Source: a virus
Taxonomy: Duplodnaviria; Caudoviricetes
Reading direction: 5' to 3' (one strand)
Virus record (IMG/VR): IMGVR_UViG_3300010162_000393
Coordinates: 1-64,000 of that record
Length of the DNA stretch: 64,000 nucleotides
Part shown: positions 40,401 through 60,041 of the stretch, piece by piece
Layout of the letters: every line of letters begins with the position of its first letter
Position numbering within the stretch: position 1 is the stretch's first letter
Notes under the pieces: model-generated
Told to the model about the DNA's origin: nothing
The model's database searches: none
What the model saw: only the letters and a program-made list of their open reading frames with translations
Made by a program: the position numbers and the translations under genes

Positions 40401-43400
40401 TTACCTGCCGGATTGACATTGAATGGTGCAACTGGTGTGATTAGTGGAACACCTACCGAATTTGGTGAATTTTTTGTTGAAGTAAAAGTAGAAAACCATT
40501 GTGGTGAAGAAACAAAAGAAATTGAAATATTTGTTTGTTCAAAACCAGCTGTTACAAGTGGTAGTAATATGAACTTTGTAATGGGTGAAGCTGGTTCAGC
40601 ACAATTAACTTCTTCTGGAACAGAAGGTGAATGGGAAATATTCGCAGGAGAATTACCAGCAGGTTTAGAATTAGACGAAGAAACCGGTTTGATTTACGGT
40701 AATCCAACCGTATTTGGTAACTTCGCTTTCACTGTTATGGTTGTTAATCCTTGCGGATCGGCAACTCAAGAAATTAACATGTTCATTTGCGGAAAACCTG
40801 CCGTTATAAGCGGTGATATGGAATTTGTAATGGGTGAAGAATCAGAAGAACAACTAATGTTCTCTGGTAGCAGACCCGGAACATGGTCAGTCGTAGAAGG
40901 TGATTTACCAGAAGGATTAACATTAGACGCTGAAACTGGTGTAATTAGTGGAACGCCTACTGAATTTGGAGATATTGTATTCACGGTTAAGGTTGAAAAT
41001 CCTTGCGGTGAAGCAACAAAAGAAATAACCGCCGTTGTTTGTGGAAAACCTGTCGTTACGAGTGGAACTAATATGACTTTTGTAATGAACGAACATAGTT
41101 CAGAACAATTAACTTCTTCCGGAACCGAAGGTATTTGGTCAATCGACGATGGTGAACTCCCAATGGGATTAATATTAGATCCTGAAACAGGTGTAATTAG
41201 TGGAACACCATTGGTATTCGGAAACTTTGTTTTCACAGTAAAAGTTGAAAATCCTTGTGGAGAAGCAACCGAAGAAATTAACATGTTCATTTGCGGAAAA
41301 CCAGCTGTTTTGAATAGTACACATCCTAATTTTGTAATGGGTGAAGAAAATGAATTGCAGTTATTATTCTCTGGTAGCAGACCAGGAACATGGTCAATTG
41401 AAGAAGGTGAATTACCAGAAGGGGTAACGTTGGATCCTGAAACAGGTATAATTAGTGGTATTCCTACTGAATTTGGTGACTTTGAATTTACTGTAAAAGT
41501 TGAGAATCCTTGCGGTGAAGCAACAAAAGACTTTGAAATGTTTGTTTGTGCTAAACCTGAAATTATAAGTCCAGACAAATATGATTCTGTATTCGATGAA
41601 GAAATATTATTTCAATTAGAAAATACAGGTACTGAAGGTATATGGGAAATTACAGAGGGTGAATTACCTCTCGGATTAGAATTAGATGAAGAAGGTTTGA
41701 TTGTTGGTACACCAAGAGTATTTGGACACTTCAAGTTCAAGGTAATGGTTGTTAATCCTTGTGGAGAAGACGAAATGGAAATTGATATGTTCATTTGTAA
41801 GCTACCTGAAATTGTAAGTGAAGAATTTGATTTTGTATTAGGCGAAGAAAGTTCTGAAGAATTAACATTTATCGGTAGCAGACCAGGATCTTGGTCAGTT
41901 GTTGAAGGTGATTTACCGGCTGGGTTGGTATTAGACTCGGTAGAAGGAACAATCAGCGGAACAGCAACTGAAAAGGGTGATTTTAATATTACGCTAAAAG
42001 TTATTAACCCTTGTGGTGAAGATACAAAAGAAATAAAAATATTTGTTTGTGAAGAACCGGAGGTTACAAGCGGAGGATACTTTGAATTTGTAATGGGTAA
42101 TGAAGTTGAATTGCAATTAGAACATACTGGAACAGATGGTGAATGGTCGCTTGTTGAAGGTGATTATTTACCAGAGGGTTTAGAATTAAATTCTGAAACC
42201 GGATTAATTAGTGGAATAGCAACAGAATTTGGTAATTTCTACTTCACAGTAAAATTAACTAATTATTGTGGCGAAGCATATAAGGTAATTCAGATATTTA
42301 TGTGCGGATTACCTGAAATCCTAACAGAGTCTATGGGGTTTGTAATGGGTGAAGAAGATGATCATCAAATAGTAGCAACAGGTAGTATGCCTGGAACATG
42401 GTCAATTATAGAAGGTGTATTGCCAAATAGTTTTGTATTAAATACGAGCACAGGTATTATAAGTGGGACACTAACCGAACATGGAGAATTTCCTATAACA
42501 GTTAAACTTGTTAATTCTTGTGGTGAAACAACAAAAGAAATTATTATAACGGTTTGTCAAACTCCAACTATTACAAGCGAAAATGATCTTGAATTTGTAA
42601 TGGGTGAAAGAGTAACATTCCAGTTAACAAATGACGGAACAGCAGGTGAATGGGAAATTATAGACGGTGAATTACCAGAAGGTTTGAGATTAAACCCTTT
42701 AACGGGTGTAATTAGCGGAAGAGCAAGAGAATTTGGTAACTTTACTTTTACAGTGAAAATTGATAACCATTGTGGTTCAGACACACAAGTAATAGAAATG
42801 TTTATGTGTGGATTACCGGTTATTTTACACGGTAATATGAATTTCCAAATAAACGAACCGGGTTCTGATACATTTATTGGTGACGGAACACCAGGTACAT
42901 GGTCTATAGTTGGTGGTGGTTTATTACCAACAGGGTTAACATTGAATCCAACAACAGGTGAAGTTAGTGGAACTCCAACAGTAGCAGGGCATTTTGAACT
43001 TGTCGTAAAACTTGAAAATGATTGTGGAAGTATAATGCGCGATGTTGTGATATTTGTTTGCGCACCACCTGAAATTATTGGTGAAATTGATGATTTCTAT
43101 GTAATGGGTAGCGAAATATCACAAGAATTTCAATTTAGTGGTAGCAGACCTGGAGAATGGAGTGTTGTAGGTGGTGACTTACCAGAAGGTGTAACATTTG
43201 ATCCTGAAACAGGTATTTTGAGTGGTATTCCAACTGAACATGGTGAATTTATATTCACTGTTAAAGTAGAAAATCCTTGCGGTGAAGCAACAAAAGAAAT
43301 AAATATATTTATATGTCTTGAACCGGAAATTATAACAGGAGGGCTTGAATTTGATTTTAACGAATATGGAGAATTTGAGTTAGAGGTTATTGGTTCAGAA

Positions 43401-46400
43401 GGGGCATGGTCAATAGTAGACGGTGATTTACCAATTGGTTTATCGTTGAATGAAGAAACCGGTGTGATTAGTGGAACACCAACCGAAAACGGAGTATTCC
43501 CAATAACTGTAAAATTTGAAAACGATTGCGGTAGTGATGAAACGGAAATATTAATTGTTATTTGTAAAGAGCCGGAAATCACAACTGAAGAAATGACACC
43601 ATCATTAAATAACCCATATTCCCAAAACATAGAATATACCGGTACGGAACCTCATACATGGGCAATAGTAGGCGGTGACTTACCATTGGGATTAGTATTG
43701 AATGAATTTACAGGTGAAATTAGCGGAACGCCATTAGAATTTGGAGATTTTATAATCACTGTTAAAGCAGAAAATGACTGCGGTGAAGATGAAAAAAGTA
43801 TTTTAATATCTGTGTGCGCCGCACCAACTGTTATAACCACCGGTCTTGAATTTGTGGTGGGTCAAGAAGGTTCAGAAGTGTTAGAATCTTTTGGAACACC
43901 AGGAACATGGTCAATAGAAGATGGTGATTTACCAGAGGGGTTGCTATTAGACCCAGATACTGGTGAAATTAGCGGAACACCTACTGATTTAGATGTGTTT
44001 GGTGAAATAAAAATAACAGTTAAGGTTGAAAATGATTGTGGTGATGACGAAAAAGAAATAACCTTATTCATTTGTAGAGAACCTGAAATCACAACAGAAG
44101 ATATGTATGCTTTCGTAGACGAAGAATTTTCAGAATTTATTGTTTATGAAGGTAGTGAACCACATTCGTGGGAAATAGTAGACGGAGATTTGCCTGATGG
44201 TTTAGATTTAGACCCTGAAACAGGTGAAATTAGTGGAACACCAACCGAGTTTGGAGATTTTATATTCACCGTAAAAGTAGAAAATTACTGCGGTGAAGAT
44301 GAAAAAGAAATTCATATGTTCGTATGTGCTCCACCAGAAATTGAAATAGAAGATGACGAATATGATGCCGTAATGGGAGAAGAGTTCTCAATGCAACTAA
44401 CCGCTTACGGAACAGGAGGTGAGTGGTCAATCGAAGATGGTGATTTACCGGAAGGATTGACCTTGAACTCTGAAACAGGTGAAATTAGTGGAACCCCAAC
44501 AGAGTTTGGGGTTTTTACTATCACTTTTAAAATAGAAAATAATTGTGGTGAACAAAATGTTGAAGTCACTATATATGTTTGTGGAGAACCGGAAATTTCA
44601 ACCGGACAATATATCCACCTTGTACAATTAGAAGAATTTGAATTACAATTAGAATTTACTGGTACTCAACCAGGAACATGGTCTGCCGTTAATTTACCAG
44701 ACGGATTAGTATTATCAGAAGATGGTTTATTAAGCGGAATACCAACAGGACATGAAGATGTTACATCACAAATAACTGTTACCAACGACTGCGGTACAGA
44801 CACAAAATCTTTTTTTTTTGATGTAGATGATGTTCATCGACTTATATTTGAAGTAAAAGATATAAGAACTGGTGATCATATACCTGACGCAACTGTTTTA
44901 TGTCCAGGTCTCGATGCGGTAGAAAATGTTGGATCGGGATTTTACATAACAATATTAAATGACGGTACATATACTTGGAGTGTATCAAAAGAGGGGTATT
45001 ACCCAAAGAGTGGAACGGTCATAGTAGAAGGAGATGAAGCGGAAGATATTCACGTATTGGTAGAGCTTCAACCATTAACACATGAAATTAAATTTATCGT
45101 TACAGATGAAGATAGCGGCGACCCGATTATTGGTGCAACCATTGATGTTGTAAATAAAGAAAGTGGTGATACTGTATCTTTAACAGATAACGGTGACGGA
45201 ACATATACTGCATTTATAATCAACGGTGAATATGATTATGATGTGTCAAAAGAAAAATATATCCCAGCAGACGGAGAATTTGAAATCGACCATGATGATG
45301 AAGTGGTTGAAGTACAACTTAAACTTGCTTGCGTAGTTCCAACTATTACAAGTGGAGATAGTATGTATTTCGTAATGGATGAAGAAGGTTTTGAACTCTT
45401 AGAATATACCGGAACAGAAGGAGAGTGGTCAATAGTTGAAGGTGATTTACCTGACGGATTAGATTTAGATCCTGAAACAGGTGAAGTTAGCGGAACGCCA
45501 ACCGAATATGGAAACTTTATATTCACAGCGAAAATAATAAATGAGTGTGGTGAAGATGAAATAGAAATTGATTTATTCGTTTGTGCACCAGAAACAGAAA
45601 TAATAAGCGATGATGAATATGAGATTGTAAGCGGATCGCCTGTTTCGATACAATTAACCACATCGGCAACATTGGGTACGTGGGAAATTGTAGATGGTGG
45701 TTTACCAGCAGGTTTAACGTTAAGTGAAACTGGTTTGATTAGCGGTACAGCAACTGAAATTGGTGAGTTTTGGTTCACAGTAAAAATGGAGGCACCATGT
45801 TGTGAAGACGAAATGGAAATTTATATGTTTGTCTGCGGAACACCAACTATTACAAGTAGTAATAATATGTACTTTGTAATGGGTGAAGAAGACGACTTTC
45901 AATTAACTGCTACCGGATCAGAAGGTCTTTGGTCTATATCAACAGGTTCATTACCATCTGGATTAACATTAGATGCTGGAACTGGTGAGATTAGCGGAAC
46001 ACCTACTGTATATGGTAACTTTACATTCACGGTTAAAATTGTAAATCCTTGTGGTGAAGCAACTCAAAACGTTAATATGAGCATTTGCGGTAAGCCTGAA
46101 ATTACAAGTGCTAATCTTGGATTTGTAATGGATGAAGTTGGAGCGCGACAATTACAATATGACGGTAGTAGACCAGGAACATGGGCAATTGTAGACGGTG
46201 ATTTACCTGCCGGATTAGCATTGAATGCTTCAACAGGTATAATTATTGGTGTACCAACCGAATTTGGGGTATTTGAAGTAACAGTAAAAGTTACCAATGT
46301 TTGTGATGAAGATACAAAAGAAATTATTATAACGGTTTGCGCATCGCCTGAAATTACAAATGAAAATACAATGGAATTCACAATAGGCGAATCAGGTTCT

Positions 46401-49400
46401 GAACAATTAACATCTTCTGGAACAGCGGGAACTTGGTCAATCGAAACAGGTACATTACCTGCCGGATTGACATTAAACGGAACAACCGGTGTAATTAGTG
46501 GAACACCTACCGAATTTGGTGATAGTTTCAAGTTCACGGTGAAAGTTACTAATCCTTGTGGTAGTGATACAATGGAGATTGATATGTTTGTTTGTGGAAA
46601 ACCAGAAGTTACAACTACCGAAATGGAATTTGTAATGGGGGAAGAGAAAACTGAACACTTAACATTCACAGGGACTACACCAGGAACATGGACAATCGAA
46701 GACGGTGATTTACCGGAAGGGTTGGAATTAGATGAAGAAACTGGTGAAATTAGCGGTACACCGACCGAATTTGGCGAATTTTCAATAAGTGTAAAGGTTG
46801 AAAACCATTGCGGTGACGATATAAAAGAAATTGATATAATAGTATGTGGAGAACCGGAAATTACAAGTAGTAATACTATGGAATTTACAATGGGTGAACC
46901 GGGTTCTGAACAATTAACACATACAGGAACAGAAGGTACATGGTCAATTGTTAGCGGAGAAAGCGATGGAAGTTTTGATGACGACTTTGATGATGACTTC
47001 GATATTGGAGAAGAAGCAAGTGAATTACCAGATGGATTATCATTAAATCCGGAAACCGGTGTTATCAGCGGAACCCCAACTGAATTTGGAAACTTTACAA
47101 TTACGGTTAAAGTTGAAAATGATTGCGGTGAAGATGAAATGGAGGTTGAAATAATAATATGTGGTAAACCGGGAATTATAAGTGACGAATTTGACATTGT
47201 AATGGGTGAACCAGAATCTATCTTATTATTACACGAAGGTAGTGCTCCCGGAACTTGGAATATAGAAGATGGTGATCTACCAGATGGTTTAACATTGAAC
47301 GAGGCAACTGGTGAGATTAGCGGAACAGCAAGTGAATTTGGGGTATTTTCATTCACGGTTAAAGTAGTTAATGCTTGTGGTAGTGATACAAAAGAAATAG
47401 AAATAACTGTTTGTGCGGAACCAGAAATTACAAGTGACGATACGACAGATTTTGTAATGGGAAAACCGGGTTCTAAACAATTAACATATTCAGGTACAGA
47501 AGGTATTTGGTCAATATCAAATGGTATATTACCAAATGGGTTGGCGTTGAATACCATAACAGGTTTAATTAGCGGCACACCTACCGAATTTGGTGATTTT
47601 TCAGTTACAGTAAGAATAGTAAATGATTGTAACGAAGATAGTCAAGTAATTAATATGTTTGTTTGTGGAGAACCAGAAATTACAAGCGACGATGAAATGT
47701 TTTTTGTAATGGATGAAGAAGGTTCTAAACAATTAACATATGTTGGTTCACCTGGTGTTTGGTCAATATCAAATGGTGATTTACCAGAAGGTTTAGATCT
47801 AAACGGAGAAACAGGTTTAATTAGCGGAACAGCGACTGAATTTGGTGAATTTATGTTCACTGTAAAAATAACAAACGACTGTGGGGAAGACGAAATGGAG
47901 ATCGAACTATTCGTTTGTGCAACAGATTCTGAAATAACAAGTGATAATGAGTATGAAATTGAAACCGGAAAAACTGTTTCAATACAATTAACTGCTTCTA
48001 AAACATTAGGTGAGTGGGTAATCGTAGATGGTGGATTACCTATTGGGCTGACATTAAATAAAGAAACCGGTTTGATTAGCGGAACAGCAACAGAATTTGG
48101 TGATTTCAAATTCACTGTAAAAATGGAAACAATTTGCGGTGAAGATGAAATGGAAATTGATATATTTGTTTGCGGTGCACCCGTTATTACAAGTGGTAAT
48201 AGTATGAGTTTCGTAATTGATGAACCCGGTTCTGAAACATTAACATACACAGGAACAGAAGGTACATGGTCAATATCAGTTGGTTCATTACCAAACGGTT
48301 TATCACTAAACACTACAACCGGAGTTGTTAGTGGAACGCCCACTGTATACGGTAACTTTATGTTTACGGTAAAAATAACAAATCCTTGTGGTGAGGCATC
48401 TAGAAATATTAATATGTTCATTTGCGGAACACCTGAAATAACAAGTGGTGATAACATGTTTTTCGTAATGGGCGAGTCCAGTTCAGAAACATTAACATTT
48501 GACGGTAGTAGACCTGGAACATGGGCAATAGAAGAAGGGATATTACCAGGTGGTTTATTGTTAAACGGAACAACTGGTGTGATTACTGGAACTCCGACAG
48601 AGTATGGAGATTATGTTTTCACGGTGAAAATTACAAACCCTTGTGGTTGGGCAACAAAACAAATTAATATGTTGGTGTGCACCGAACCAGAAATAACAAC
48701 AAGTATTAATGAATATGATGGTGTAAAAGGTAATCCTATTTCAATAGAATTAGAATCAATCGGAACAGACGGTGTTTGGTCAGTATCAGCGGGTAAATTA
48801 CCTACAGGATTATTGTTAGATGATGAAACCGGAATAATTAGCGGAACACCAACAGAATTTGGTGACTTCACATTTACAGTAAAAATTACTAACCCTTGTG
48901 GAGTAGATACATTAGAGATAGAATTATTTATTTGTGGTCCAGCGGAAATTATAACAGGTCAGTATTTCCATTTTATACAAGAAGAAGAGGTTGAAGAAAC
49001 ATTAGAGTTTGAAGGAACTCATCCCGGTGTTTGGACAGCAGAAGATTTACCAGAAGGATTAGTGTTGTCAGAAGAAGGTAAATTAAGTGGCTCCCCAACA
49101 GAATTTGGTGAATTTAGAACACAAATAACTGTTAACAATGATTGTGGTGGAGATACAAAAGAATTTTTATTTGAAATAGATGATATTCATCGAATTATAT
49201 TTGAAGTAAAAGATATAAGGACTGGTGATCATATACCTGATGCAACTGTTGTTTGCCCTGATTTAGAAATAGAAAACGTTGGTTATGGTTTTTATGTGAC
49301 AAAATTGGTTGACGGAACGTATGATTGGACAGTTTCAAAAGAAGGTTATTATACTGAAACAGGTACGGTTATTGTAGAAGGAGATGAAGCAGAAGATATT

Positions 49401-51827
49401 CATGTATTAGTCTTACTCCAACCTTTGACACACGAAATTAAATTCATAGTAACAGATGAAGACAGTGGTGAACCGATTATTGGCGCAACCATTGATGTTG
49501 TAAATTCAATAAGTGAACAAGTTGTGTCTTTAACTGATAACGGCGATGGAACATACACGGCGTTTATAGTAAATGGAGATTATGATTATGATGTTTCAAA
49601 AGAAAAATATATACCAAAAGATGGTAGATTCAACATTAATCGTGATGATAAAGTAATTGAAGTACAACTTAAACTTGCATGTGAAATACCTGTTATTACA
49701 AGTAGTAATGAGATATTTTCCCTAATAGGTGAAGAAATTTTCTTACAATTGGAACAAGATGGTACACCGGGTGTATGGACATTGGTTGAGGTAACAGGTT
49801 ATGGTGGTGATTTTAATAACGATTTTAGTAACGATTTCAGTATCGGTAAAAACACTGGTAAATTACCTATTGGGGTAACATTTGATTCTGAAAACGCTAT
49901 TATTGGCGGTATACCAAATGAGTTTGGTATCTTTACCGTTACTGTAAAGTTGGAAAACGACTGTGGTGAAGATGAAATGGAAATTGAAATCTTTGTCTGT
50001 GCTGAATCCGAGATAACAAGTACTAATGAAATTATTAACGAAGAAGAGACTCTTCATACAGTAACACTTCTTACAACTATAGAGCGACGCACAAGTCAAA
50101 TTTTCAACGGAAAGTTGTATATGCCACAAGAACAAGGTACCACCCTTGAAATTTTTGATTTGATAACTGAATCTAGTCGCACGGTAACACTTACAAATAT
50201 GGGGCGATACACAAGTCAAATTTTCAACGGAAAGTTGTATATGCCACGAGCACATCAGTTTCCTACCGGTATCGGCACCCTTGAAATTTTTGATTTGGTA
50301 ACTGAAGTTAATCGCACGGTAACGCTTCCTACAAATAATATGATGCGATACACAAGTCATATTTTCAATGGAAAGTTATATATGCCACAAAGTTGGGGTA
50401 CAACCCTTGAGATTTTTGATTTGATAGAAGAAACTACTCGGACGATAACACTTCCTACAAGTATGGAACGATACACAAGTCAAATTTTCAACGGAAAGTT
50501 ATATATGCCACAAAGTTTGGGTACAACCCTTGAGATCTTTGATTTGGTGACAGAAACTACTCGGACGGTAGCACTTCCTACAAATATGTGGCGAAACACA
50601 AGTCAAATTTTCAATGGAAAGTTATATATGCCACAAAATAACGGTACCACCCTTGAGATTTTTGATTTAACGACAGAAACCACACGCACGGTAACACTCC
50701 CTATAGAAGTGTCTCAGGCAAGTCAAATTTACAATGGAAAGTTATGTATGCCACGTTCTGGTGGTGGAACCACCCTTGTGATTTTTGATTTGATAGAAGA
50801 AACCACTAACATGGTAACACTTTCAACTACAAATACGTTCCTATTAACAAGTCAAATTTACAATGGAAAGTTATATATGCCACAAACCAATGGTACCACC
50901 CTTGTGATTTTTACCACCACAATTATAAAATCAAGTTTATTTGAAATAGAAACAAATAAATATGTTTCAATACAATTAACCGCTTCTGCAACTCCTGGAA
51001 CATGGGTAATTACAGAAGGTGTATTACCACTTGGTTTAGTGTTAAATAATAAAACTGGGTTGATAAGTGGTATTGCAACCGAATTTGGAGAGTTTACATT
51101 TACGGTTGAATTGGAAACACCTTGTAGTATTGATACAACGGAAATTAACATGTTTGTTTGCGGCGCACCTGTTATTACAAGCGGTAATAGTATGTATTTC
51201 GTAATGGGAGAAGGTGACTATAGTGAACAATTAGAATATGTTGGCACAGAAGGTGAATGGTCGGTTTCAACAGGAACATTACCTAGTGGTTTATATTTAA
51301 ATCCAATAACCGGTGTTGTAGATGGTACCCCGAATGTATATGGTAACTTTACTTTCACAATTAAAATTGAAAACCCTTGTGGAGAAGCAACTAAAAACAT
51401 TAGTATGTTCATTTGCGGAAAACCAACCGTTATAACTAATCAGTTAAATTTTGTTAGAGGTGAATTTGGTTCAGAAGAATTAATATTTGCTGGTAGTAGA
51501 CCTGGATATTGGTCAATATTTGGTGGTAGTTTTGACGATGAGGATTTTGATGAATCCTTTGAGACAGAAGACGCTGAATTACCATATGGTTTATCATTAG
51601 ATCCAAATACCGGTATTATTAGCGGAACACCGATTGAAATAGGAAACTATGCAATTCTTGTTAAAGTTGTTAATCCTTGTGGTGAAGCAACAAAAGAAAT
51701 TAATATATTAATATGCGATGAATTTGATATAACAAATGATAATCAATATGATATTATAAAAGGTGATCCTATTTTAATACAATTAACAACTACTTTTGGT
51801 AAAAAAGATGAACCAATAGCACATTAA
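34437..51827 (+). CDS. Giant (5796 aa) putative-Ig (He_PIG-like) repeat protein with carboxypeptidase-regulatory-like domains and an inserted beta-propeller; probable virion fibre
   Basis: Roughly 60 units of about 81 aa, consensus C-x-x-P-x-I...W-S-I-x-x-G-x-LP-x-GL-x-L...G-x-ISGTPT...F-x-V-x-V-x-NxCG. Also I-x-DA-x-V...NG-x-Y...V-x-KEGY domains. No signal peptide seen. Confidence 0.9.
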   Translation: MASKFSVNRHATQKYSVYSRVVNDISPVVVASTAKSPNDIIFTITFYVTDFNDKKIPDASVSIVSHDFKIINHFDGSYKVIDVPNGKYEYVVEKTGFVAVEGVVTVSGSDLEVHVKLCEVPSKIVNGNLNFVMNEEMYQKFGYVGSTPGTWSVVKGELPNGITFDHDGILSGTPRAFGKFEVTVMVENSCGSVTKDLLIQVCAVPEITTVDFVLPHKQTVSEQLSFYGSEPATWSVEDGLLPKGLLLNGQTGVISGTTKDYGDFDVTFKVANACGEDVKELKITICAKPKITSNDDTKFTMGEEGSVQLTSYGNPGVWTLYSGNLPNGLTLSEDGILSGTPTTFGKFDFTVKVENACGEDRQFMKVWICGKPEVVSGDMSFVMGQPVSHQLQFSGSRPGTWSIVEGVLPKGLTLNAETGVISGTPKEFGESSFTVMVVNPCGEATKVVNASLCAKPTIMSCCSGCDTNFVKGQEASMQYEASGSAGTWSVLGGILPTGLTLDPNTGIISGTPTVGGYYEFTLKFTNPCGEVEKCMSLFVCAEPSIKGSGEISFAMGQPGSHELHFEGSRPGIWSVSEGVLPAGVSLNAELGVISGTPTEFGDFDFTLKVTNHCGESTKEMNISICGQPQITSAGNINILTGESVNIQLESNGTPGVWSAEYGLPEGLSLSADGLISGEPTESGNFNVLITLTNDCGEASRNFNIFVCAEPEILTGDFDVLQNTPMSKQLQFAGSRPGTWSIEEGSLPWELKMDSKGVVSGTPKKVGSFSVLLKVKNYCGEVTKPIVVTSKKTYKATFIVKMEDGTMVPDASVVVGGFIVTNNNNGTYESYLTDGAHGFTVTKEGYEVEEGVVEIDGEDVVVTIILCVFPEILNGDMSFVMGVAKVVQLESTGSAGEWSIQGDLPEGLTFNATTGVISGTPEEFGEFEITLIMTNPCGSVSKDIEIVICGAPEITSSDEIEFVKGEKSSYELEFFGTDPATWEVSEGSLPAGLTLDAATGEIKGTPTVFGDFVFTVKVTNECGFDEQEISMFICAEPEVTSSGTLSFVMTEEHSEQLTSSGTPGVWSIVTGNLPDGLSLNVATGVISGTATEFGDFTVVVRVVNECGEATKETVISVCGLPVVTSGDMEFVMNEPVSHQLTAEGTEGTWRLLSGKLPLGLTLDSETGIISGTPTEFGDFSIVLRFTNVCGVARKILNIFVCAKPQITSANNINFALSDEASFQLEYTGTPGTWSVVDGDLPEGVTLKPTTGVISGTPVEAGNYYVTLKIENACGDATKSVNIFVCAEPVIIVSNIEFLQNVYVSKQLDFTGSRPGKWEVVSGSFPAGITLATNGVVSGIPTEMGNFEVVVKVKNPCGEDTKEISLFSCAKPVIINDNNIAFVKGEESAVQIEAIGTEGTWSIVSGALPNGLSLDPSGEISGTPTEGGTFKVTVQLENPCGVTTKMMVINVCAKPIIVSGDLDFVQNTPVSHQLRFIGSRPGKWSISAGNLPAGLSLDPNTGIISGSTHEFGEYNLTISVENECGVANKDIIMSTCSKPGIVSGDMNFVINEEGSSLLENSGTAGTWSIISGSLPNGLELDEITGEISGTPTVSGIYTFTVKVVNSCGEATKVVNLYVCAKPVISTGDLSFVMGEAVSQKLQYTGTRPGEWSIEGELPNGLTFNAETETISGIPSEFGEFEVILIVKNPCGEASKTIEIVICAKPVITSDHADFVMGEESSVELEGNGTEGVWTVDSGVLPEGLSLSSDGILSGTPAVSGNHSFTVKFKNACGESIKTILIYICAKPTIVSGDLNIVMGTPMSQQLIFSGTRPGTWSIESGNLPTGITLSEDGVLSGTTTEFGDFDVVIRVENPCGIALKPITIDTCAKPTITNNSDLTFVMNEYSSDELTASGTAGVWSVIGGSVLPDGLELDEETGIISGTPTVSGTFNIVVKIENHCGEDIRSIAIQICAKPTITSGELDFEVGVHGSETLTFTGSRPGTWSIVEGALPAGLTLNGATGVISGTPTEFGEFFVEVKVENHCGEETKEIEIFVCSKPAVTSGSNMNFVMGEAGSAQLTSSGTEGEWEIFAGELPAGLELDEETGLIYGNPTVFGNFAFTVMVVNPCGSATQEINMFICGKPAVISGDMEFVMGEESEEQLMFSGSRPGTWSVVEGDLPEGLTLDAETGVISGTPTEFGDIVFTVKVENPCGEATKEITAVVCGKPVVTSGTNMTFVMNEHSSEQLTSSGTEGIWSIDDGELPMGLILDPETGVISGTPLVFGNFVFTVKVENPCGEATEEINMFICGKPAVLNSTHPNFVMGEENELQLLFSGSRPGTWSIEEGELPEGVTLDPETGIISGIPTEFGDFEFTVKVENPCGEATKDFEMFVCAKPEIISPDKYDSVFDEEILFQLENTGTEGIWEITEGELPLGLELDEEGLIVGTPRVFGHFKFKVMVVNPCGEDEMEIDMFICKLPEIVSEEFDFVLGEESSEELTFIGSRPGSWSVVEGDLPAGLVLDSVEGTISGTATEKGDFNITLKVINPCGEDTKEIKIFVCEEPEVTSGGYFEFVMGNEVELQLEHTGTDGEWSLVEGDYLPEGLELNSETGLISGIATEFGNFYFTVKLTNYCGEAYKVIQIFMCGLPEILTESMGFVMGEEDDHQIVATGSMPGTWSIIEGVLPNSFVLNTSTGIISGTLTEHGEFPITVKLVNSCGETTKEIIITVCQTPTITSENDLEFVMGERVTFQLTNDGTAGEWEIIDGELPEGLRLNPLTGVISGRAREFGNFTFTVKIDNHCGSDTQVIEMFMCGLPVILHGNMNFQINEPGSDTFIGDGTPGTWSIVGGGLLPTGLTLNPTTGEVSGTPTVAGHFELVVKLENDCGSIMRDVVIFVCAPPEIIGEIDDFYVMGSEISQEFQFSGSRPGEWSVVGGDLPEGVTFDPETGILSGIPTEHGEFIFTVKVENPCGEATKEINIFICLEPEIITGGLEFDFNEYGEFELEVIGSEGAWSIVDGDLPIGLSLNEETGVISGTPTENGVFPITVKFENDCGSDETEILIVICKEPEITTEEMTPSLNNPYSQNIEYTGTEPHTWAIVGGDLPLGLVLNEFTGEISGTPLEFGDFIITVKAENDCGEDEKSILISVCAAPTVITTGLEFVVGQEGSEVLESFGTPGTWSIEDGDLPEGLLLDPDTGEISGTPTDLDVFGEIKITVKVENDCGDDEKEITLFICREPEITTEDMYAFVDEEFSEFIVYEGSEPHSWEIVDGDLPDGLDLDPETGEISGTPTEFGDFIFTVKVENYCGEDEKEIHMFVCAPPEIEIEDDEYDAVMGEEFSMQLTAYGTGGEWSIEDGDLPEGLTLNSETGEISGTPTEFGVFTITFKIENNCGEQNVEVTIYVCGEPEISTGQYIHLVQLEEFELQLEFTGTQPGTWSAVNLPDGLVLSEDGLLSGIPTGHEDVTSQITVTNDCGTDTKSFFFDVDDVHRLIFEVKDIRTGDHIPDATVLCPGLDAVENVGSGFYITILNDGTYTWSVSKEGYYPKSGTVIVEGDEAEDIHVLVELQPLTHEIKFIVTDEDSGDPIIGATIDVVNKESGDTVSLTDNGDGTYTAFIINGEYDYDVSKEKYIPADGEFEIDHDDEVVEVQLKLACVVPTITSGDSMYFVMDEEGFELLEYTGTEGEWSIVEGDLPDGLDLDPETGEVSGTPTEYGNFIFTAKIINECGEDEIEIDLFVCAPETEIISDDEYEIVSGSPVSIQLTTSATLGTWEIVDGGLPAGLTLSETGLISGTATEIGEFWFTVKMEAPCCEDEMEIYMFVCGTPTITSSNNMYFVMGEEDDFQLTATGSEGLWSISTGSLPSGLTLDAGTGEISGTPTVYGNFTFTVKIVNPCGEATQNVNMSICGKPEITSANLGFVMDEVGARQLQYDGSRPGTWAIVDGDLPAGLALNASTGIIIGVPTEFGVFEVTVKVTNVCDEDTKEIIITVCASPEITNENTMEFTIGESGSEQLTSSGTAGTWSIETGTLPAGLTLNGTTGVISGTPTEFGDSFKFTVKVTNPCGSDTMEIDMFVCGKPEVTTTEMEFVMGEEKTEHLTFTGTTPGTWTIEDGDLPEGLELDEETGEISGTPTEFGEFSISVKVENHCGDDIKEIDIIVCGEPEITSSNTMEFTMGEPGSEQLTHTGTEGTWSIVSGESDGSFDDDFDDDFDIGEEASELPDGLSLNPETGVISGTPTEFGNFTITVKVENDCGEDEMEVEIIICGKPGIISDEFDIVMGEPESILLLHEGSAPGTWNIEDGDLPDGLTLNEATGEISGTASEFGVFSFTVKVVNACGSDTKEIEITVCAEPEITSDDTTDFVMGKPGSKQLTYSGTEGIWSISNGILPNGLALNTITGLISGTPTEFGDFSVTVRIVNDCNEDSQVINMFVCGEPEITSDDEMFFVMDEEGSKQLTYVGSPGVWSISNGDLPEGLDLNGETGLISGTATEFGEFMFTVKITNDCGEDEMEIELFVCATDSEITSDNEYEIETGKTVSIQLTASKTLGEWVIVDGGLPIGLTLNKETGLISGTATEFGDFKFTVKMETICGEDEMEIDIFVCGAPVITSGNSMSFVIDEPGSETLTYTGTEGTWSISVGSLPNGLSLNTTTGVVSGTPTVYGNFMFTVKITNPCGEASRNINMFICGTPEITSGDNMFFVMGESSSETLTFDGSRPGTWAIEEGILPGGLLLNGTTGVITGTPTEYGDYVFTVKITNPCGWATKQINMLVCTEPEITTSINEYDGVKGNPISIELESIGTDGVWSVSAGKLPTGLLLDDETGIISGTPTEFGDFTFTVKITNPCGVDTLEIELFICGPAEIITGQYFHFIQEEEVEETLEFEGTHPGVWTAEDLPEGLVLSEEGKLSGSPTEFGEFRTQITVNNDCGGDTKEFLFEIDDIHRIIFEVKDIRTGDHIPDATVVCPDLEIENVGYGFYVTKLVDGTYDWTVSKEGYYTETGTVIVEGDEAEDIHVLVLLQPLTHEIKFIVTDEDSGEPIIGATIDVVNSISEQVVSLTDNGDGTYTAFIVNGDYDYDVSKEKYIPKDGRFNINRDDKVIEVQLKLACEIPVITSSNEIFSLIGEEIFLQLEQDGTPGVWTLVEVTGYGGDFNNDFSNDFSIGKNTGKLPIGVTFDSENAIIGGIPNEFGIFTVTVKLENDCGEDEMEIEIFVCAESEITSTNEIINEEETLHTVTLLTTIERRTSQIFNGKLYMPQEQGTTLEIFDLITESSRTVTLTNMGRYTSQIFNGKLYMPRAHQFPTGIGTLEIFDLVTEVNRTVTLPTNNMMRYTSHIFNGKLYMPQSWGTTLEIFDLIEETTRTITLPTSMERYTSQIFNGKLYMPQSLGTTLEIFDLVTETTRTVALPTNMWRNTSQIFNGKLYMPQNNGTTLEIFDLTTETTRTVTLPIEVSQASQIYNGKLCMPRSGGGTTLVIFDLIEETTNMVTLSTTNTFLLTSQIYNGKLYMPQTNGTTLVIFTTTIIKSSLFEIETNKYVSIQLTASATPGTWVITEGVLPLGLVLNNKTGLISGIATEFGEFTFTVELETPCSIDTTEINMFVCGAPVITSGNSMYFVMGEGDYSEQLEYVGTEGEWSVSTGTLPSGLYLNPITGVVDGTPNVYGNFTFTIKIENPCGEATKNISMFICGKPTVITNQLNFVRGEFGSEELIFAGSRPGYWSIFGGSFDDEDFDESFETEDAELPYGLSLDPNTGIISGTPIEIGNYAILVKVVNPCGEATKEINILICDEFDITNDNQYDIIKGDPILIQLTTTFGKKDEPIAH
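50050..50920 (+). repeat. Seven repeats of about 39 aa (about 117 bp), a predicted 7-bladed beta-propeller
   Basis: Unit TSQIFNGKLYMPQxxGTTLEIFDLxxETTRTVTLP repeated seven times, highly similar at the DNA level. Confidence 0.85.
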
Positions 51828-51830
51828 TAT

Positions 51831-51838
51831 CTATTTAT
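51831..51838 (+). promoter_or_regulatory. CTATTTAT motif in the 47-nt gap that splits an Ig domain
   Basis: Starts 4 nt after the giant gene's stop and precedes the ATG at 51875. Confidence 0.55.
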
Positions 51839-51874
51839 GAATAAAAGAAAAATAATATTTAAATATAAAAAATT

Positions 51875-54664
51875 ATGGATTCAAAATTAATAAACGAATG
51901 GACAATTATATACGGTAGATTACCAAATGGTTTGTTGTTGGATAAGGAAACCGGTGAAATAAGCGGTATCCCAACCGAAACAGGTAACTTCACATTTACT
52001 GTAAAGGTTGTAAATCTTTGTGGAGAAGAAACAATGGAGATAGAATTGTTTGTTTGCGCAATGCCTGAAATTACGACCGCACCATATTTTCATTTTATAC
52101 AATTAGAAGAAATTGAAGAAAAAATATTAGAGTTTGAAGGAACTCAACCAGGAGTATGGTCTGCTGTTAATTTGCCAGACGGGTTAATATTATCGGAAGA
52201 CGGAAAACTAACAGGAACACCAACCGGATATGGTGAAATAAAATCAGAAATAACTGTTACCAATGCCTGTGGAGCAGATACTGTAGAATTTCTTTTTGAT
52301 TTAGATGATGTTCATCAAATTATATTTGAAGTAAAAGATAAACGAACCGGTGAACATATACCTGACGCAACAGTTATTTGCCCTGATTTGGAAATAGAAA
52401 ATCATGATAATGGTTTTTATACAACAATACTGAATGACGGGGAGCATCCTTGGCATGTTTCAAAAGAAGGGTATTTTCCAGAAGAAGGGACCGTTGTAGT
52501 AGAAGGAGATGAGGGGGAAGATATTTATGTGTTGGTGGAACTTCAACCAACAACATATGAATTAAAGTTTATTGTTACATATGAAGATACAGGAAATCCG
52601 GTAACAGATGCTACTATTGGGGTTATAAATTCTGAAACTGAACAAATTATTTCTTTAACAAATAAAGGTGGTGGTGTGTACTCTACATTTGTTGAAAATG
52701 GTAAATATGATTGGGGCGTTTCAAAAGAAAGTTATATTCCAGTAGATGGTGACGTTACTATTAATTATGCGGACGAGGTAATTGAGGTTGCGCTTATCCA
52801 AACTACAAAAGAATTAATATTTAAGGTAATAAATAATGGTGGTAGTTTTAGTGAACTACATTTTGATAATTCTTTTGATGTTGGCGGAAGGTTAATTAAT
52901 GATGCGACGGTTGTTTCTGGTAATTCACTGATTGATTTAGATATAACAAACAACAATGACGGTACTTATAAAACAGAAGTGTTTTCTGGTACATATAACT
53001 ATGCAATATCAAAAGAGGGATTCATAACCGAAAAAGGTAGTGTAGTGGTGCAAAGTGAAAATGTTGAAGTTTCTGTCCCACTTTCTGAAATAGTTGGTAT
53101 TATAACAGTAAATGCGACTGTTGCCCTGAGTAATGCTACTTGTAGTGCAACAATATCAGCATCTCCTGTATTATCTGGTTATACATATGATTGGTCTTTA
53201 TGGAATATGGATACAGAAACTTTAATTTCACAATCTCTTAATCAAACAGGTACTACATGGAATATGGGAGCAATGAGTAGTGGAAATCAAAATGTACCTC
53301 TTGAAGTACGCTGTACTGTAAAAGAACCTGTTTCGTCCGGCACCGCTTCGTTTGTTTGTACCCCACTTCCTTTGTGGAGAGTAACACAATTAAACCCTAC
53401 TTTGACGGTAAATAGAGCAAATATAATAACAGGTGAAACATTTATTGCCACATGTACAAACACCGTCGGAATGTCGCCGTTTGAATATGTATTTGAGGTG
53501 ATTAACCGCAGTAACGGTGAAGTAATACACGGTCCAATAAATCAAGATGTGTTAAATATATTTGAATATACACCAGCGACATTAGGAAATTATGGTGTTC
53601 GTTGTAGAGTGAATGTAAAAAATATACCTGTTGAATTTTATGATCAAACAGATGGGTTAGCAACAAGACTCGCTACCGTTAGTGGTCAAACTGATAACAT
53701 TGCTAGGGTTGATGTATACGATCCTATTGTTGCGACAATATCAACACCAAAATTAGGTCTGATGGAAGATGAACCGTTTGTTGTAACATGTACTTGGTCT
53801 GGTGGTTTAAGTCCATTTAGTTTTATTTGGAGTATGTGGCGAAAAGATGGTAGTACTTATACACAAATTGGAGCAAATACCACTACTACATCTTTTCAAT
53901 ATGGTAATGGTACATCAGCTTTATTTCCTACTCAATTTGCAACGCTCTTTACAAGTGGTGAAGCGAGTGGAATTAAAGAGGTTGAATTTAGATGTAGAGT
54001 AGAGAGTACTTCAACTTTATTTAACCCTCGTTTATCATGTGATGTGGTTCCAATTGTTGTTCAAATAGAACGACCACCATTTCAGTTTGTTTCAATAACA
54101 TTGGAAGGTACTGAACCTGGAGATGGTGACGATGGGAAAAGTCCTAGTCATTTTTTTGGAACAACCATAAAGGCAACTATTAATTTTACTGGTGGTACAC
54201 TACCAATAACACGTTACCAAAGAAGATTATCAACCCTTACAAATACAAATGGAAATTTAATTGCACTTGGTGATATTACACCGCTATCACCAACATTTGA
54301 GTTTATATGGCCGGTGTCAAACGGATCAACAAGTGGTAATGTTGATCATGTTACCTTGTATTGTACAGTAAGAGATAATAAGAATAGAGAAATAAATGGT
54401 AGTATAATAATATATAATTATATGTTTGGTAAACTATCTGGTATTATCACTTACAATCAGAAAAAACCAACAGGTGATGAAACGCTACCATACGTTATAA
54501 CACCATATGGTGGTGTTGGAACAGTTTATTATAGTTGGAAAATATACGATAATGAAACCAATGAATTAGTTGCAACGATTCCATCAATTGGTACCCAAAC
54601 CGGTACAACTATTAATTATGCAATTCCCTCAAGTCTTGCTCATTATGATGCTTTGATAAAATAA
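51875..54664 (+). CDS. Ig-repeat fibre continuation protein (929 aa)
   Basis: Begins with the second half of an Ig repeat. Then carboxypeptidase-regulatory-like domains and PKD/Ig-like units (GG-x-x-P...Y-x-W...V-R-C-x-V). Confidence 0.88.
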   Translation: MDSKLINEWTIIYGRLPNGLLLDKETGEISGIPTETGNFTFTVKVVNLCGEETMEIELFVCAMPEITTAPYFHFIQLEEIEEKILEFEGTQPGVWSAVNLPDGLILSEDGKLTGTPTGYGEIKSEITVTNACGADTVEFLFDLDDVHQIIFEVKDKRTGEHIPDATVICPDLEIENHDNGFYTTILNDGEHPWHVSKEGYFPEEGTVVVEGDEGEDIYVLVELQPTTYELKFIVTYEDTGNPVTDATIGVINSETEQIISLTNKGGGVYSTFVENGKYDWGVSKESYIPVDGDVTINYADEVIEVALIQTTKELIFKVINNGGSFSELHFDNSFDVGGRLINDATVVSGNSLIDLDITNNNDGTYKTEVFSGTYNYAISKEGFITEKGSVVVQSENVEVSVPLSEIVGIITVNATVALSNATCSATISASPVLSGYTYDWSLWNMDTETLISQSLNQTGTTWNMGAMSSGNQNVPLEVRCTVKEPVSSGTASFVCTPLPLWRVTQLNPTLTVNRANIITGETFIATCTNTVGMSPFEYVFEVINRSNGEVIHGPINQDVLNIFEYTPATLGNYGVRCRVNVKNIPVEFYDQTDGLATRLATVSGQTDNIARVDVYDPIVATISTPKLGLMEDEPFVVTCTWSGGLSPFSFIWSMWRKDGSTYTQIGANTTTTSFQYGNGTSALFPTQFATLFTSGEASGIKEVEFRCRVESTSTLFNPRLSCDVVPIVVQIERPPFQFVSITLEGTEPGDGDDGKSPSHFFGTTIKATINFTGGTLPITRYQRRLSTLTNTNGNLIALGDITPLSPTFEFIWPVSNGSTSGNVDHVTLYCTVRDNKNREINGSIIIYNYMFGKLSGIITYNQKKPTGDETLPYVITPYGGVGTVYYSWKIYDNETNELVATIPSIGTQTGTTINYAIPSSLAHYDALIK

Positions 54665-54695
54665 TATAAAAATAATATAAAAAAATAATAATAAA

Positions 54696-57600
54696 ATGGC
54701 ACATTATCCATACAATGATTTACGTTTAGAATGTACAATAACCAATAGCGGAAATTCAAATGAATTTGTTGCAAAAGAGTGGGTTACACCAGCCGTACCG
54801 GTTGCAGCATGGGAGGGGACAAAAGAACCTATGTTAACTGGTTTAGCATTTCCCAAACCAACAAATTTGAGATATGCTAATATAACCAACCATGTCTATT
54901 CGCCAACAAGAAATACCGCATATTATTATAATAACCAAGTTATTCAATATTCAAGTGTATTAAGTCCAATTCGGTTAGTATATATATTGAAAATTACCGA
55001 TTTTATTATGACAAGTTGTACGGTTGGGTGTTTGCACCCAGACGGGGTAATATTTTTATGTAATAATAACACTAGTTCTTCAAGAGCAATATTAGTAAAG
55101 GAAATAAGTGAAGAACCATTTGCTGATTATGAAACAATACATAATTATCCGGGTGCTTTACCGGATACTAATGGTAATAGGAGACTTCATTTTGTTCATT
55201 ATTATGATAATAAATTCTATGCGCAAAATGGTGTAGTATATGATATGAATTATAACGAAATTGCTACCCATTTAGTTGATAACACAGCAAAAGTAGCACC
55301 CGTTAATCCAAAACTTCAACCAAATAGATGGTGGATTGGTACAGCTACTGCAAATGGTGGAACAAAATCGTGTTATATTTCAAATAATGATAGTGCGAAT
55401 AGTTATACAAATTCTTTATCTGTTTCCCATTTTTATCGTGATGTTGAAATTAATTCAACAACAACTGATCCAGCATCAATATCGTTTAATTGGAAAGGTG
55501 TTGGTGATACGACTTGGGGTTATTTACAGTTTCGTGTTATAGAAACTAGTGAAACGCCGGTACCAGGTACACTACCTTCAGGATCCTCTCTTGTTGGTAA
55601 TTTATTTAATAGTTCAGTGTGGATAAATAGAGTTGTTACTCTAGGTGAAATGTCTGGTGTAAAACGTATTGTGTTTACATGGCGTAATACCGCAAATACT
55701 ACTTACCAACCACCTGCTGCCGTAGATAACATTATTATTAAGACGAATGTTGGTCCAGATATTATTGAGGATTTTGAGAGCGGTGATGGTACAACACTTG
55801 ATAATTGGGTGTTTCCGGATCCTCTAGTTATATTACCACCAAATATATCATATTACGGTTTTAATACAGAAAGAGATATATTATATGGTTATAATGCTAA
55901 TCTATTGAATACAAATAATGGGGATGGAAAATTTCTTTGTAATATTCGTATTAATAATACCGGAAATTTAATTCTAGCTGTTTATGATGTTGTAAGTAAT
56001 AATGTTAAAGTGTTAAATAGCATAGTAACAAATAATATATCATATTTTGGTTATTATTTTGCGAATAATTGTGTTGTTGTATTAATGCATGATATTTTGG
56101 ACTCCCAAACACCAAGAATGGCAAAGGTTAAAATATATGATTTAATTTCCGATAATATAACGGAATTAGATATTAAACGATCAACCACTTTCACAACTTT
56201 TTATGTTAGACCAACATTTGATAAAAGATATGTAAACATTGCAACAAATCTTACTGTTGCTACTACACCACGCATATATGAAACATATTTTACATTTGTT
56301 GATACTATTGATAAGCGAATAATAACCAGAAACGGATCATATTCTTATAATAATAATTCTGGTAGTAACGATACTGCTCTTTCTTTTCATATGACTTATG
56401 CGTATGCTTTTATTGAATATGAAGGTGAATTTGTTGGTATCCATACAAAATTGAGTGATGGTAATGCGCTACATTCATTATGTGATGTTCCGGTAGTTCT
56501 TGGTGATAGAATATATTCATACGGACATACTTCAGCAAACCATCCTGTTTATTTTGTGGATAAAACGAATCAATTAACATTATTATCAACAAATGATAAT
56601 ACATATCAAGAACTTAATCCAACAACCACACCTGTATGGTTTTTACCTACTTCTAATCTTGTTTATTTACAATATAATAATAATATATATAAAATAGGTA
56701 TTTCTAATTTTTATGTTGGAACTAATAATTATAGCGTTTCGTTGGTTGTTTCGGTTTATGATGTTGCTTCTTATTCATGGAGTGTTGTTAATAAATTGAA
56801 TTTATCTAGTGGTAATAATAATAGTGATTTTAGAATTATTCGCGCATGTTTTGATGAAGATTATGTGTATTTATTAGTAAACTATGCAAATAGTACCGCA
56901 TTAAGAATAATTATATTTAATAAAATAACATACGAGTTAATATCAAATACTGATGCTCAACGTAATCAACCATTTTATATTAGTTTTAATAATACTCAAA
57001 CTGCTCTTTGGAATTTTAGTAGTAGATATGGAAATGGTAGTAGTAATTTGCGACCAACAATATCAACATCTAATATGTTTTATAACAATTTTTATCTTTT
57101 CTTTGACATTAGTTATACACCAGTCCCATTTATGATATATGATATGAAAACACGTATAATTCATCAAATGATGTGGGATGGTTGTAATAGTACAACCTCT
57201 GGACTATCTATACCAAGTAATACGGCTAGTAATTATACAATTACATTCGTTGAGTTGGATAATAATAAAATATTAGCTTCAGCGTTTTTTAATAATAATT
57301 TTAGTTTAATATTAGAACATGATTTATCTACAAGATCAACTATTTTGTTAAACCATTCAAACTGGAATGATAGTACTATGGGGCGTGAAAGAAAACTTGT
57401 ACTTGGTAATATTTATAGGGTTGCTGATCGTATATATATTAATACCACAGCAACCACAGGTGGTGTGGCATTTGATCTTGATTATAACCCTGTTTCTTTT
57501 AGTGGTATTACACCAACTCAAGATTATTCAGATTATTATCGTCTTAATTATAATAACATTACACCTCATTATTTTGTAAATTCAGATAACACAATAATAA

Positions 57601-60008: not shown

Positions 60009-60041
60009 ATTTAAAAATAATACAATAAAAATATAATAAAA

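Follow-up and report, generated by a model that had tools for sequence, protein, structure and literature searches.

We propose that a giant repeat gene of this phage was split by an insertion and that its two products are rejoined through one rebuilt Ig-like domain, a reading to which we assign a probability of roughly 0.65. The window, the whole 64,000-nt stretch analysed, covers the initial 64 kb of a fragment of 136.9 kb that belongs to a huge termite-gut phage, with a genome expected to reach ~360 kb. The split, which is real and probably functional, falls inside a single He_PIG (PF05345) Ig-like unit.

One Ig-like unit divided between two genes

The upstream ORF (34437-51827, + strand) encodes a giant protein of 5796 aa with 58 He_PIG units together with CarboxypepD_reg-like and propeller-like inserts, and its translation ends ...ILICDEFDITNDNQYDIIKGDPILIQLTTTFGKKDEPIAH ahead of a TAA at 51825-51827. 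It stops after the first third of one unit, and the next ORF (51875-54664, + strand), which lies in a different frame and begins MDSKLINEWTIIYGRLPNGLLLDKETGEISGIPTETGNFTFTVKVVNLCGEETMEIELFVC, opens with the remainder. The first part, Cys5760-Gly5788 of the giant protein (51714-51800, + strand), corresponds to strands A, A' and B, a putative 'socket-filling' tail, and is followed by an extra C-terminal tail, KKDEPIAH, and the stop codon (51801-51827, + strand). An AT-rich spacer of 47 nt (51828-51874, + strand) contains stop codons in all three frames and therefore a single indel cannot join the two ORFs; within this spacer neither RNA structure nor a terminator is predicted (fold z = 0.47). 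The downstream gene starts with an ATG and an extra N-terminal peptide, MDSKLINE (51875-51898, + strand), proceeds through the second part of the unit, Trp9-Cys61 or strands C to G (51899-52057, + strand), and continues through one full He_PIG unit and CarboxypepD_reg-like repeats to a conserved C-terminal region, giving a protein of 929 aa.

A repeat profile made from the giant protein's own repeats, which detects 58 units, places the giant's tail at profile positions 9-40 and the head of the 929-aa protein at positions 44-102, and the halves are therefore exactly complementary. The sequence-only reading had claimed that an Ig domain is divided over two genes, the downstream head being the exact remainder of the unit begun upstream, and this is borne out by the translation, by these profile positions and by the Pfam match, in which the head matches the He_PIG profile at positions 46-81 only. 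The head scores 86.8 bits, close to the 87.6-bit median of second halves in intact units. The giant's first half is unusually diverged, at 10.3 bits against a median of 27.5 (second lowest of 54), which could reflect relaxed constraint.

The closest intact paralogous unit (Cys4748-Cys4833; 48678-48935, + strand) lies within a module of the giant gene at ~48660-49663. This module shares ~73% DNA identity with the split-spanning region at ~51700-52788 and can be aligned both before and after the gap at ~73-75% identity, the sole large indel being a ~90-nt stretch that holds the stop, the spacer and the ATG, with the KKDEPIAH and MDSKLINE codons at its left and right ends. Judged by this alignment, the split arose by insertion. 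The He_PIG-repeat gene, fibre- or adhesin-like, was formerly continuous through the split unit until the insertion entered the turn between strands B and C, bringing a stop codon, an A-rich leader, an ATG and, within its spacer, CTATTTAT. As these elements came with the insertion, the last 929 residues would now form a product of their own, for which a dedicated promoter is probably also in use.

The promoter-like CTATTTAT at 51831-51838 (+ strand) stands 36 nt ahead of the start codon of the 929-aa gene, a codon immediately preceded by an A6 run, and a further copy at 34372-34379 (+ strand) stands 57 nt before the ATG of the giant ORF. Over the 136.9-kb record, 16 of the 22 copies lie just upstream of ORF starts, compared with 3.3% for controls, which were 167 8-mers of the same composition (binomial p about 1e-19); copy number shows no excess over chance, and it is placement rather than count that is non-random. 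The gap does, as was first suggested, carry its own motif and an A-rich leader, and the 929-aa gene would be expressed from this motif.

Fused and multi-split relatives

The comparison of relatives rests on the four lineages found, in which the gene exists as one fused ORF (5195 aa), as two pieces (this phage) and as three pieces (contig L013), and both fused and split homologues, for which a search had been proposed, are thus on hand. The fused orthologue, P0113, is encoded in a complete 367,155-bp genome with conserved downstream gene order. Its N-terminus is 59% identical to the giant's first 118 residues, its residues 4213-5191 are orthologous to the 929-aa protein at 37% identity, and its unit equivalent to the split one is continuous. 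The closest relative, P0002/L012 (43-49% identity), reads through both the equivalent unit and the preceding one. In L013 the first boundary lies between a giant protein ending ...FTGTAPQI and a protein starting MEGW..., and the second between a 291-aa protein ending ...FTGTAPIVDEEDPEEPEEEPEE and a 938-aa protein starting MANNNGW.... The half units at these boundaries score like intact halves (23-24 and 76-83 bits), and the gaps measure 80 and 134 nt, one with a long hairpin. A fourth gene at this turn, P0130, starts MKGW with CTATTTAT 19 nt upstream and opens with a half unit, yet the gene upstream of it is on the opposite strand, so a half domain can exist without an adjacent partner gene.

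Every cut falls in one turn of the 84-residue unit, directly before an invariant Trp. The spacers of the split lineages are unrelated in sequence, which is no proof of independent splits as the lineages are only ~40% identical, and the number of independent events is uncertain. The like cuts in relatives, the near-intact score of the second half and the presence of a motif, leader and ATG support the earlier view that the split is maintained rather than decayed.

Predicted reassembly and rival explanations

Prediction of the giant tail with the 929-aa head, the check that the sequence-only reading had put forward, returned a complex with ipSAE values of 0.62, 0.63 and 0.62, the best of three controls reaching 0.00; among 80 solved complexes 58 attain this mark, and among 110 mismatched pairs 2 do, a rough guide only as own alignments were used. 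The runs share at least 95% of contacts, with a partner pLDDT of 85, and the predicted interface joins giant residues 5758-5787 to residues 3-63 of the 929-aa protein through A'-G and B-E strand pairings. Such a prediction should succeed easily for two halves of one known fold, and paralogue alignments cut at the same place as the split were supplied, so the prediction speaks for compatibility and not for binding. The intact unit is modelled as a cadherin-like Ig sandwich (pLDDT 96.9, TM 0.81 to 4nzj), in which the cut position is a turn between two strands. Reassembly in trans is thereby modelled as one rebuilt domain, at the level of prediction; the strand complementation first envisaged is refined in the model, being no donation of a single strand: the five-strand partial sandwich of the 929-aa head would receive about three strands from the giant tail.

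Giant Cys5760 and Cys49 of the 929-aa protein are both on the predicted interface list. In the predicted parallel register Ile5765 pairs with Met54, each five residues after its Cys, which would set the two cysteines side by side, and an inter-chain disulfide between them may form, although virion assembly takes place in the reducing cytoplasm.

We regard as unlikely a genuine, tolerated split whose half domains are unfolded or partly folded leftovers, the 929-aa protein acting alone or docking elsewhere and the gain being only an extra promoter and start. The weak first half and the N-terminal half unit of P0130, with no adjacent first half, would suit this explanation, as would the confident AlphaFold2 model of the 929-aa half domain in isolation, although such a model says little about real stability. 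However, this phage keeps both halves and L013 does so at two more boundaries, their profile scores being near normal, random truncation would not be expected to place all cuts in one turn, and an exposed half sandwich would tend to aggregate and should soon be lost.

It is very improbable that the gene is a pseudogene or chimera, broken by a recent inactivating mutation or by an error of assembly or sequencing. A highly repetitive gene favours misassembly, and the contigs with the split, which differ at one site in 8.8 kb, could all represent one strain; however, three other assemblies match the junction at 100% identity (ENA ERZ27257295, JGI 3300010882 and Logan SRR5215140), the inserted stretch has a proper start, leader and CTATTTAT, the 929-aa ORF is intact and conserved, and the diverged L013 shows a like boundary twice. 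No indel or joined form was found at the junction in the covering termite-gut contigs, which come from runs of three studies, some of these runs being possibly the window's own source. Joining of the ORFs in translation, whether through bypassing of the T4 gene 60 type or through read-through combined with a frameshift, would still yield one giant protein and is less probable still: the 47-nt gap is near the 50 nt bypassed in T4 gene 60 and the A6 run precedes the ATG, but no landing codon matches the take-off codon CAT, the gap has no stem-loop, two successive recoding events would be required, the downstream ORF has its own start signals, and the L013 gaps are of other lengths.

Known systems and the proposed joint

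The nearest known cases are the 'genes-in-pieces' of T4-like phages and the composite Ig domain of Tuc2009 BppU-BppA. The former include nrdA of Aeh1 (mobE), T4 genes 39/60 (mobA) and gene 43 of phages 25 and 44RR, which is divided by intercistronic untranslated sequence (PMC2988022). There, as here, a gene contiguous in relatives became two cistrons by insertion and the polypeptides must reassemble, and the 47-nt gap has its nearest analogue in the short untranslated spacer of 44RR gene 43. The T4-like cases concern enzymes, divided between or within large catalytic regions, in most instances by a homing-endonuclease gene. The protein divided in the present phage is a structural repeat protein, the break lies within a single beta-sandwich of 84 residues, no ORF occupies the gap, and cuts are found repeatedly at one and the same turn. 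In the baseplate tripod of Lactococcus phage Tuc2009, the C-terminal beta-hairpin of BppU completes BppA domain 2 to give a titin-like Ig domain (PMC4742702). This is a solved likeness, two phage structural proteins forming one Ig-like domain as a C-terminal tail completes the partner's sheet, with no sequence relationship to the window proteins. In our case about three N-terminal strands of the fold would be given to an N-terminal partial domain of the next gene product, and the fused orthologue shows that the domain was formerly in one chain.

Donor-strand complementation and exchange in chaperone-usher pili (Fim, Pap, Caf1), and strand exchange in the type V pili of Bacteroidia, likewise fill an incomplete Ig-like fold with strands of another polypeptide, giving very stable non-covalent fibre joints. 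A pilin is missing a single C-terminal strand, takes up one N-terminal extension and depends on a periplasmic chaperone and usher, or on a protease; the joint proposed here would instead involve three donated strands and cytoplasmic assembly, with a different polarity and no evident chaperone. SpyTag/SpyCatcher, engineered from a split CnaB2 domain, is also a small beta-sandwich cut in a loop whose pieces reassemble with a possible covalent lock, but it is man-made and uses an isopeptide bond, whereas the split He_PIG unit occurs in nature and could at most be locked by a disulfide.

Given the one-, two- and three-piece states in relatives, the pieces most likely rejoin by rebuilding the split domain. 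Strands A, A' and B of the ~30-residue giant tail and strands C to G of the 60-residue head on the 929-aa protein would form one Ig-like domain that ties the distal module non-covalently to the fibre end, a joint that Cys5760 and Cys49 may later lock.

The broken repeat and its two halves

The giant ORF (34437-51827 on the + strand, 5796 aa) ends ...ILICDEFDITNDNQYDIIKGDPILIQLTTTFGKKDEPIAH followed by TAA, and the 929-aa ORF begins 47 nt on at 51875, in a different frame, as MDSKLINEWTIIYGRLPNGLLL...NLCGEETMEIELFVC. Pfam assigns the repeats to He_PIG (PF05345), a cadherin-like 'putative Ig' family, with membership judged by the gathering score at a cut-off of 24 bits. The C-terminal 675 aa of the giant protein score well beyond this (E 7.6e-29, 100.4 bits), as does the 929-aa protein (E 4.9e-11, 43.4 bits), whose first match covers profile positions 46-81 only. 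A custom profile made from the giant's own repeats detects 58 units; in each, a boundary Cys is followed 32 residues later by an invariant Trp, and a further Cys lies in an NxCG turn. On this profile the giant tail occupies positions 9-40 and the 929-aa head positions 44-102, which bears out the claim of the sequence-only reading that the next gene starts with the remainder of the giant's broken repeat. With 86.8 bits the head is close to the median of 53 intact second halves (87.6); the tail, at 10.3 bits against a median of 27.5, is diverged yet recognisable. Elsewhere in the giant's Ig array, at window ~50040-50940, lie about eight near-identical 40-residue repeats (RYTSQIFNGKLYMPQ...TTLEIFDL) that match F-box-associated beta-propeller profiles.

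The closest paralogue of the sequence across the break is a module inside the giant gene at ~48660-49663, with ~73% identity over 875 nt right of the break and similar identity on the left. The only large difference in this alignment is a block of ~90 nt found in the split copy, comprising the KKDEPIAH tail, TAA, the 47-nt spacer, ATG and MDSKLINE, which indicates that the unit was formerly continuous and was then broken by an insertion. No second copy of the block is present in the 136.9-kb record, and the untranslated spacer, with no ORF, is not of the homing-endonuclease type.

Predicted reassembly and the cysteine pair

AlphaFold2 models the intact paralogous unit (48678-48935) at a pLDDT of 96.9, and the nearest solved folds found by Foldseek are 4nzj, a He_PIG-type domain (TM 0.81), and the SraP cadherin-like modules 4m03 and 4m02 (TM 0.78). 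The predicted model is a seven-strand beta-sandwich like the solved He_PIG members. The break maps to the turn that links the strand of model residues 23-30 to the Trp strand (35-41), which gives strands A, A' and B to the giant tail and strands C to G to the 929-aa protein. When residues 5660-5796 of the giant and 1-140 of the 929-aa protein are predicted as a complex, each with an alignment of paralogous segments, the ipSAE is 0.62, 0.63 and 0.62, and 0.00 in the best of three controls. Of 80 solved complexes 58 reach this ipSAE mark, as do 2 of 110 mismatched pairs, a calibration that is approximate here since our own alignments were supplied. The runs share at least 95% of contacts at a partner pLDDT of 85, and the confident interface joins giant residues 5758-5787 to residues 3-63 of the 929-aa protein, with the A' strand of the tail beside strand G and the B strand beside the strand at residues 27-33. 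Exchanging chain 1 for another lowers the partner pLDDT from 85 to 68, which we take as a hint only.

The reassembly in trans proposed from the sequence, as one rebuilt domain, is supported at the level of prediction. The model speaks for compatibility of the halves rather than for binding as such, because likeness alone should let two halves of a known fold pass such a test; it supports binding of the two halves without showing it. The 929-aa N-terminus modelled alone is confident along its whole length, with a pLDDT of 96-98 over the half domain, which says nothing on the need for a partner since AlphaFold2 draws native-like partial folds. The two parts may instead be leftover halves with no binding role, a reading that we consider unlikely. 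The split appears to have been kept rather than decayed, as the sequence-only reading had supposed: the 929-aa head scores as an intact half, and cuts recur in relatives.

The same model bears on the inter-chain disulfide that was proposed along with reassembly. Within a unit, the whole of strand G separates the NxCG Cys from the boundary Cys after it, so that these two cannot pair; the boundary Cys before a unit and that unit's own NxCG Cys are both at one end of the sandwich. In the complex model Ile5765 of the giant contacts Met54 of the 929-aa protein, each five residues past its Cys (5760 and 49), and both Cys5760 and Cys49 are on the predicted interface list. This register, with both cysteines in the interface, makes a Cys5760-Cys49 inter-chain disulfide geometrically reasonable in the model. 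Virion assembly would place the candidate disulfide in a reducing cytoplasm, within an anoxic gut, and none of the He_PIG structures returned by a PDB sequence search (4nzj, SraP) has a matching Cys pair.

Fused, continuous and multiply split relatives

Residues 150-929 of the 929-aa protein, used as the query of an exhaustive profile-free search, returned three informative relatives, which allow fused and split states to be compared among homologues. P0113 (5195 aa), from a complete genome of 367,155 bp with terminal repeats, is a fused ORF that spans both window proteins and leaves the equivalent unit unbroken. Identity is 59% between its residues 1-118 and the N-terminus of the window giant, and 37% between its residues 4213-5191 and the 929-aa protein; downstream lie orthologues of the window's 1770-aa gene and of the gene that follows. 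For P0113 and loci L014/L015, the fused gene being in L014, a single ORF corresponds to both window proteins; the orthologue is contiguous in related phages. P0002 (43-49% identity), on a 3.7-kb contig where its ORF runs open to the contig end, is continuous through two intact units at the position of the window's break. In the third relative, P0114 (938 aa, about 39-44% identity), the gene is broken twice. The giant gene of its contig, L013, ends ...EEDSKQIDFTGTAPQI before the stop codon; 80 nt on is a 291-aa gene that starts MEGWKVIS..LPKGL and ends ...YEQLGFTGTAPIVDEEDPEEPEEEPEE before its own stop codon; and P0114 starts MANNNGWSIIDGVLPDG 134 nt past that gene, with a long hairpin in the gap. 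At both L013 boundaries the cut in the unit lies between profile positions 43 and 44-46, in the turn that is also broken in the window, and the half units have profile scores like those of intact halves. The 134-nt gap (L013:5867-6000) contains a perfect 13-bp inverted repeat (GGATTCATCATCA aat TTGATGATGAATCC); its terminator-like sequence suggests that the L013 pieces may be transcribed separately.

With units numbered from the CarboxypepD_reg-like region, the break lies in the second unit in the window and in the third and sixth units in L013, and P0002 is unbroken at the second and third. The different broken units, together with the continuity of P0002, favour separate split events, with gain or loss of units also possible. 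The three spacers (that of the window and the two in L013) are not more alike than shuffles, which cannot prove independent events because the lineages are only ~40% identical in protein. Both readings lead in one direction: if the cuts are independent, one turn has been picked among ~84 positions each time; if they are inherited, both halves have been retained through ~60% protein divergence.

Further incomplete units occur within the clade. P0130 (1228 aa, L018:586-4272) starts MKGWSILSGKLP (MKGW...), the second half of a He_PIG unit, with the 8-nt motif CTATTTAT 19 nt upstream and its upstream neighbour on the opposite strand; with this arrangement it counts as an 'orphan' half domain, and any partner would be encoded elsewhere. 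In the complete 367-kb relative, a 95-aa protein (G001:C1 ~7384-7100, - strand, locus L021) is a He_PIG unit lacking the N-terminal strands A/A', with strands A/A' of the next unit and an acidic tail at its C-terminal end, a pilin-like layout. A second protein there (G001:C1 ~22946-22263, - strand, locus L022), with a probable GTG start, likewise begins at strand B, and both may be further strand-complementation partners. The boundary between the 929-aa and 1770-aa genes (window 54665-54695; ...SSLAHYDALIK, stop, then MAHYPYNDLRLECTI...) is kept in all relatives, the fused one included, the equivalent in L014 being ...ADFETQLI, stop, then MAHYPYKNLKFECTL.

Other searches added little to this set. 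Region 50800-53200 had no blastn match in deposited phage genomes, a single-protein scan across viral contigs gave no pattern match, and alignments of the next gene and the C-terminal region, run against viral and metagenome contigs, found no lineages beyond those known. A word-indexed search for longer fused forms was empty, yet the exhaustive search recovered the 5195-aa P0113, which makes that blank uninformative.

The 300 nt round the junction are identical in contigs ENA ERZ27257295, JGI 3300010882 and Logan SRR5215140, which show no more than one base difference from the window over 4.8-8.8 kb. In four termite-gut runs, the contigs that span the junction have no difference, indel or alternative joint, and three of these runs may be where this DNA came from. 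The gap has stop codons in all three frames, and a single indel therefore cannot fuse the two ORFs. That an artefact or a fresh pseudogene accounts for the split is very unlikely.

The motif within the gap, which the sequence-only reading had singled out, proves to be real and placed as a gene-upstream element. Copies of CTATTTAT in the 136.9-kb record are not more numerous than chance, but their positions are far from random: 16 of the 22 are followed, at no more than 70 nt, by the first ATG of an ORF of 100 codons or more, against 3.3% for 167 same-composition 8-letter words (p about 1e-19). The window copies, all on the + strand, are at 373, 9539, 23498, 34372, which is upstream of the giant gene, and 51831, which is inside the gap and 36 nt ahead of the 929-aa ATG; the next two intergenic gaps (54665-54695 and 60009-60041) have none. 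It also stands upstream of genes in related phages (L018, L021). We read it as a promoter-like element of this phage clade, and the insertion would supply the 929-aa gene, probably also the next two genes, with their own transcription start. A scan of the gap for sigma-70 promoters and terminators found nothing exceeding shuffles. Joining of the two ORFs during translation is most improbable, given that the CAT before TAA has no downstream copy and hence take-off and landing codons are unmatched, that the gap RNA folds no better than shuffles (z-score 0.47), and that the 929-aa gene has a proper start. Bypassing of the T4 gene 60 type was rejected for want of matched codons and a stem-loop, and read-through plus frameshifting was also considered and rejected.

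Precedents, source phage and implications

Genes cut in two whose products reassemble are described in T4-like phages, one of them being gene 43 of phage 44RR, where the interruption is a short untranslated spacer (PMC2988022). Our case resembles these in having a contiguous orthologue in relatives and an untranslated spacer in the gap. In phage Tuc2009 the C-terminal hairpin of BppU and domain 2 of BppA together form a composite Ig-like domain that has been solved (PMC4742702); completion of a partner's Ig-like sheet by a C-terminal tail, solved there, is a prediction for our case. Chaperone-usher pili differ in that the pilin fold lacks its C-terminal G strand, which is filled by the N-terminal extension of another subunit, whereas here strands A, A' and B are missing and would be given by the C-terminal tail of the upstream protein; no periplasmic chaperone or usher was seen among Pfam and PHROG matches of neighbouring genes. 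New features are the use of a He_PIG fold, a cut placed after three strands, a clear origin by insertion that brought a promoter-like motif, and a natural series in which the gene is in one, two or three pieces.

The window is the first 64,000 bases of an IMG/VR virus record of 136,864 bp. CheckV puts the record at 38% completeness, from which a full genome of about 360 kb would be expected. Among the genes are those for a family-B DNA polymerase, an RNA ligase, a large terminase, a DnaB-like helicase and an SbcC-like protein, and the GC content is 32%. The stretch is present in five sequencing runs from three studies, every one a termite gut metagenome, and no RNA run was listed for it. A TnpB-like protein (OrfB_IS605 / Cas12f1-like TNB, 412 aa) lies amid phage replication genes at window 14002-15240 on the - strand. 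The N-terminal part of the 1770-aa protein (window 54696-55900) contains a module of ~150 aa with 35-49% identity to Bacteroidota cell-surface proteins, many of which are T9SS cargo. Used as a query, this N-terminus returned one true orthologue, the remaining matches being Bacteroidota surface proteins with the module. The likeness hints at a host that is perhaps a member of the Bacteroidota, consistent with A-rich leaders without a Shine-Dalgarno sequence.

The same fibre occurs naturally as one, two or three polypeptides, cut always in one turn of an 84-residue domain, and this series is a direct testable case of giant virion proteins turning modular. A cut into complementary halves permits separate promoters, parallel translation of a fibre of ~6700 residues and, possibly, the swapping of distal modules. 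The two halves would also be a small split-domain pair of natural origin, perhaps disulfide-lockable, like those that protein engineers build by hand. For annotation, the case is a warning that 'truncated' Ig domains where neighbouring phage genes end are not necessarily mistakes or pseudogenes. More broadly, and as a tentative proposal that we regard as possible but doubtful, incomplete He_PIG domains would form a general plug-and-socket code in this termite-gut huge-phage clade, clipping or chaining fibre segments and alternative distal modules that each have a gene and promoter of their own, with the conserved Cys pair perhaps locking the joints after release. Candidates may include the proteins of 929 and 938 aa, the 291-aa linker, which has half a domain at either end, the stand-alone P0130 and the 95-aa protein. 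Were this true, the fibre would be combinatorial or branched, and not one fixed polypeptide.
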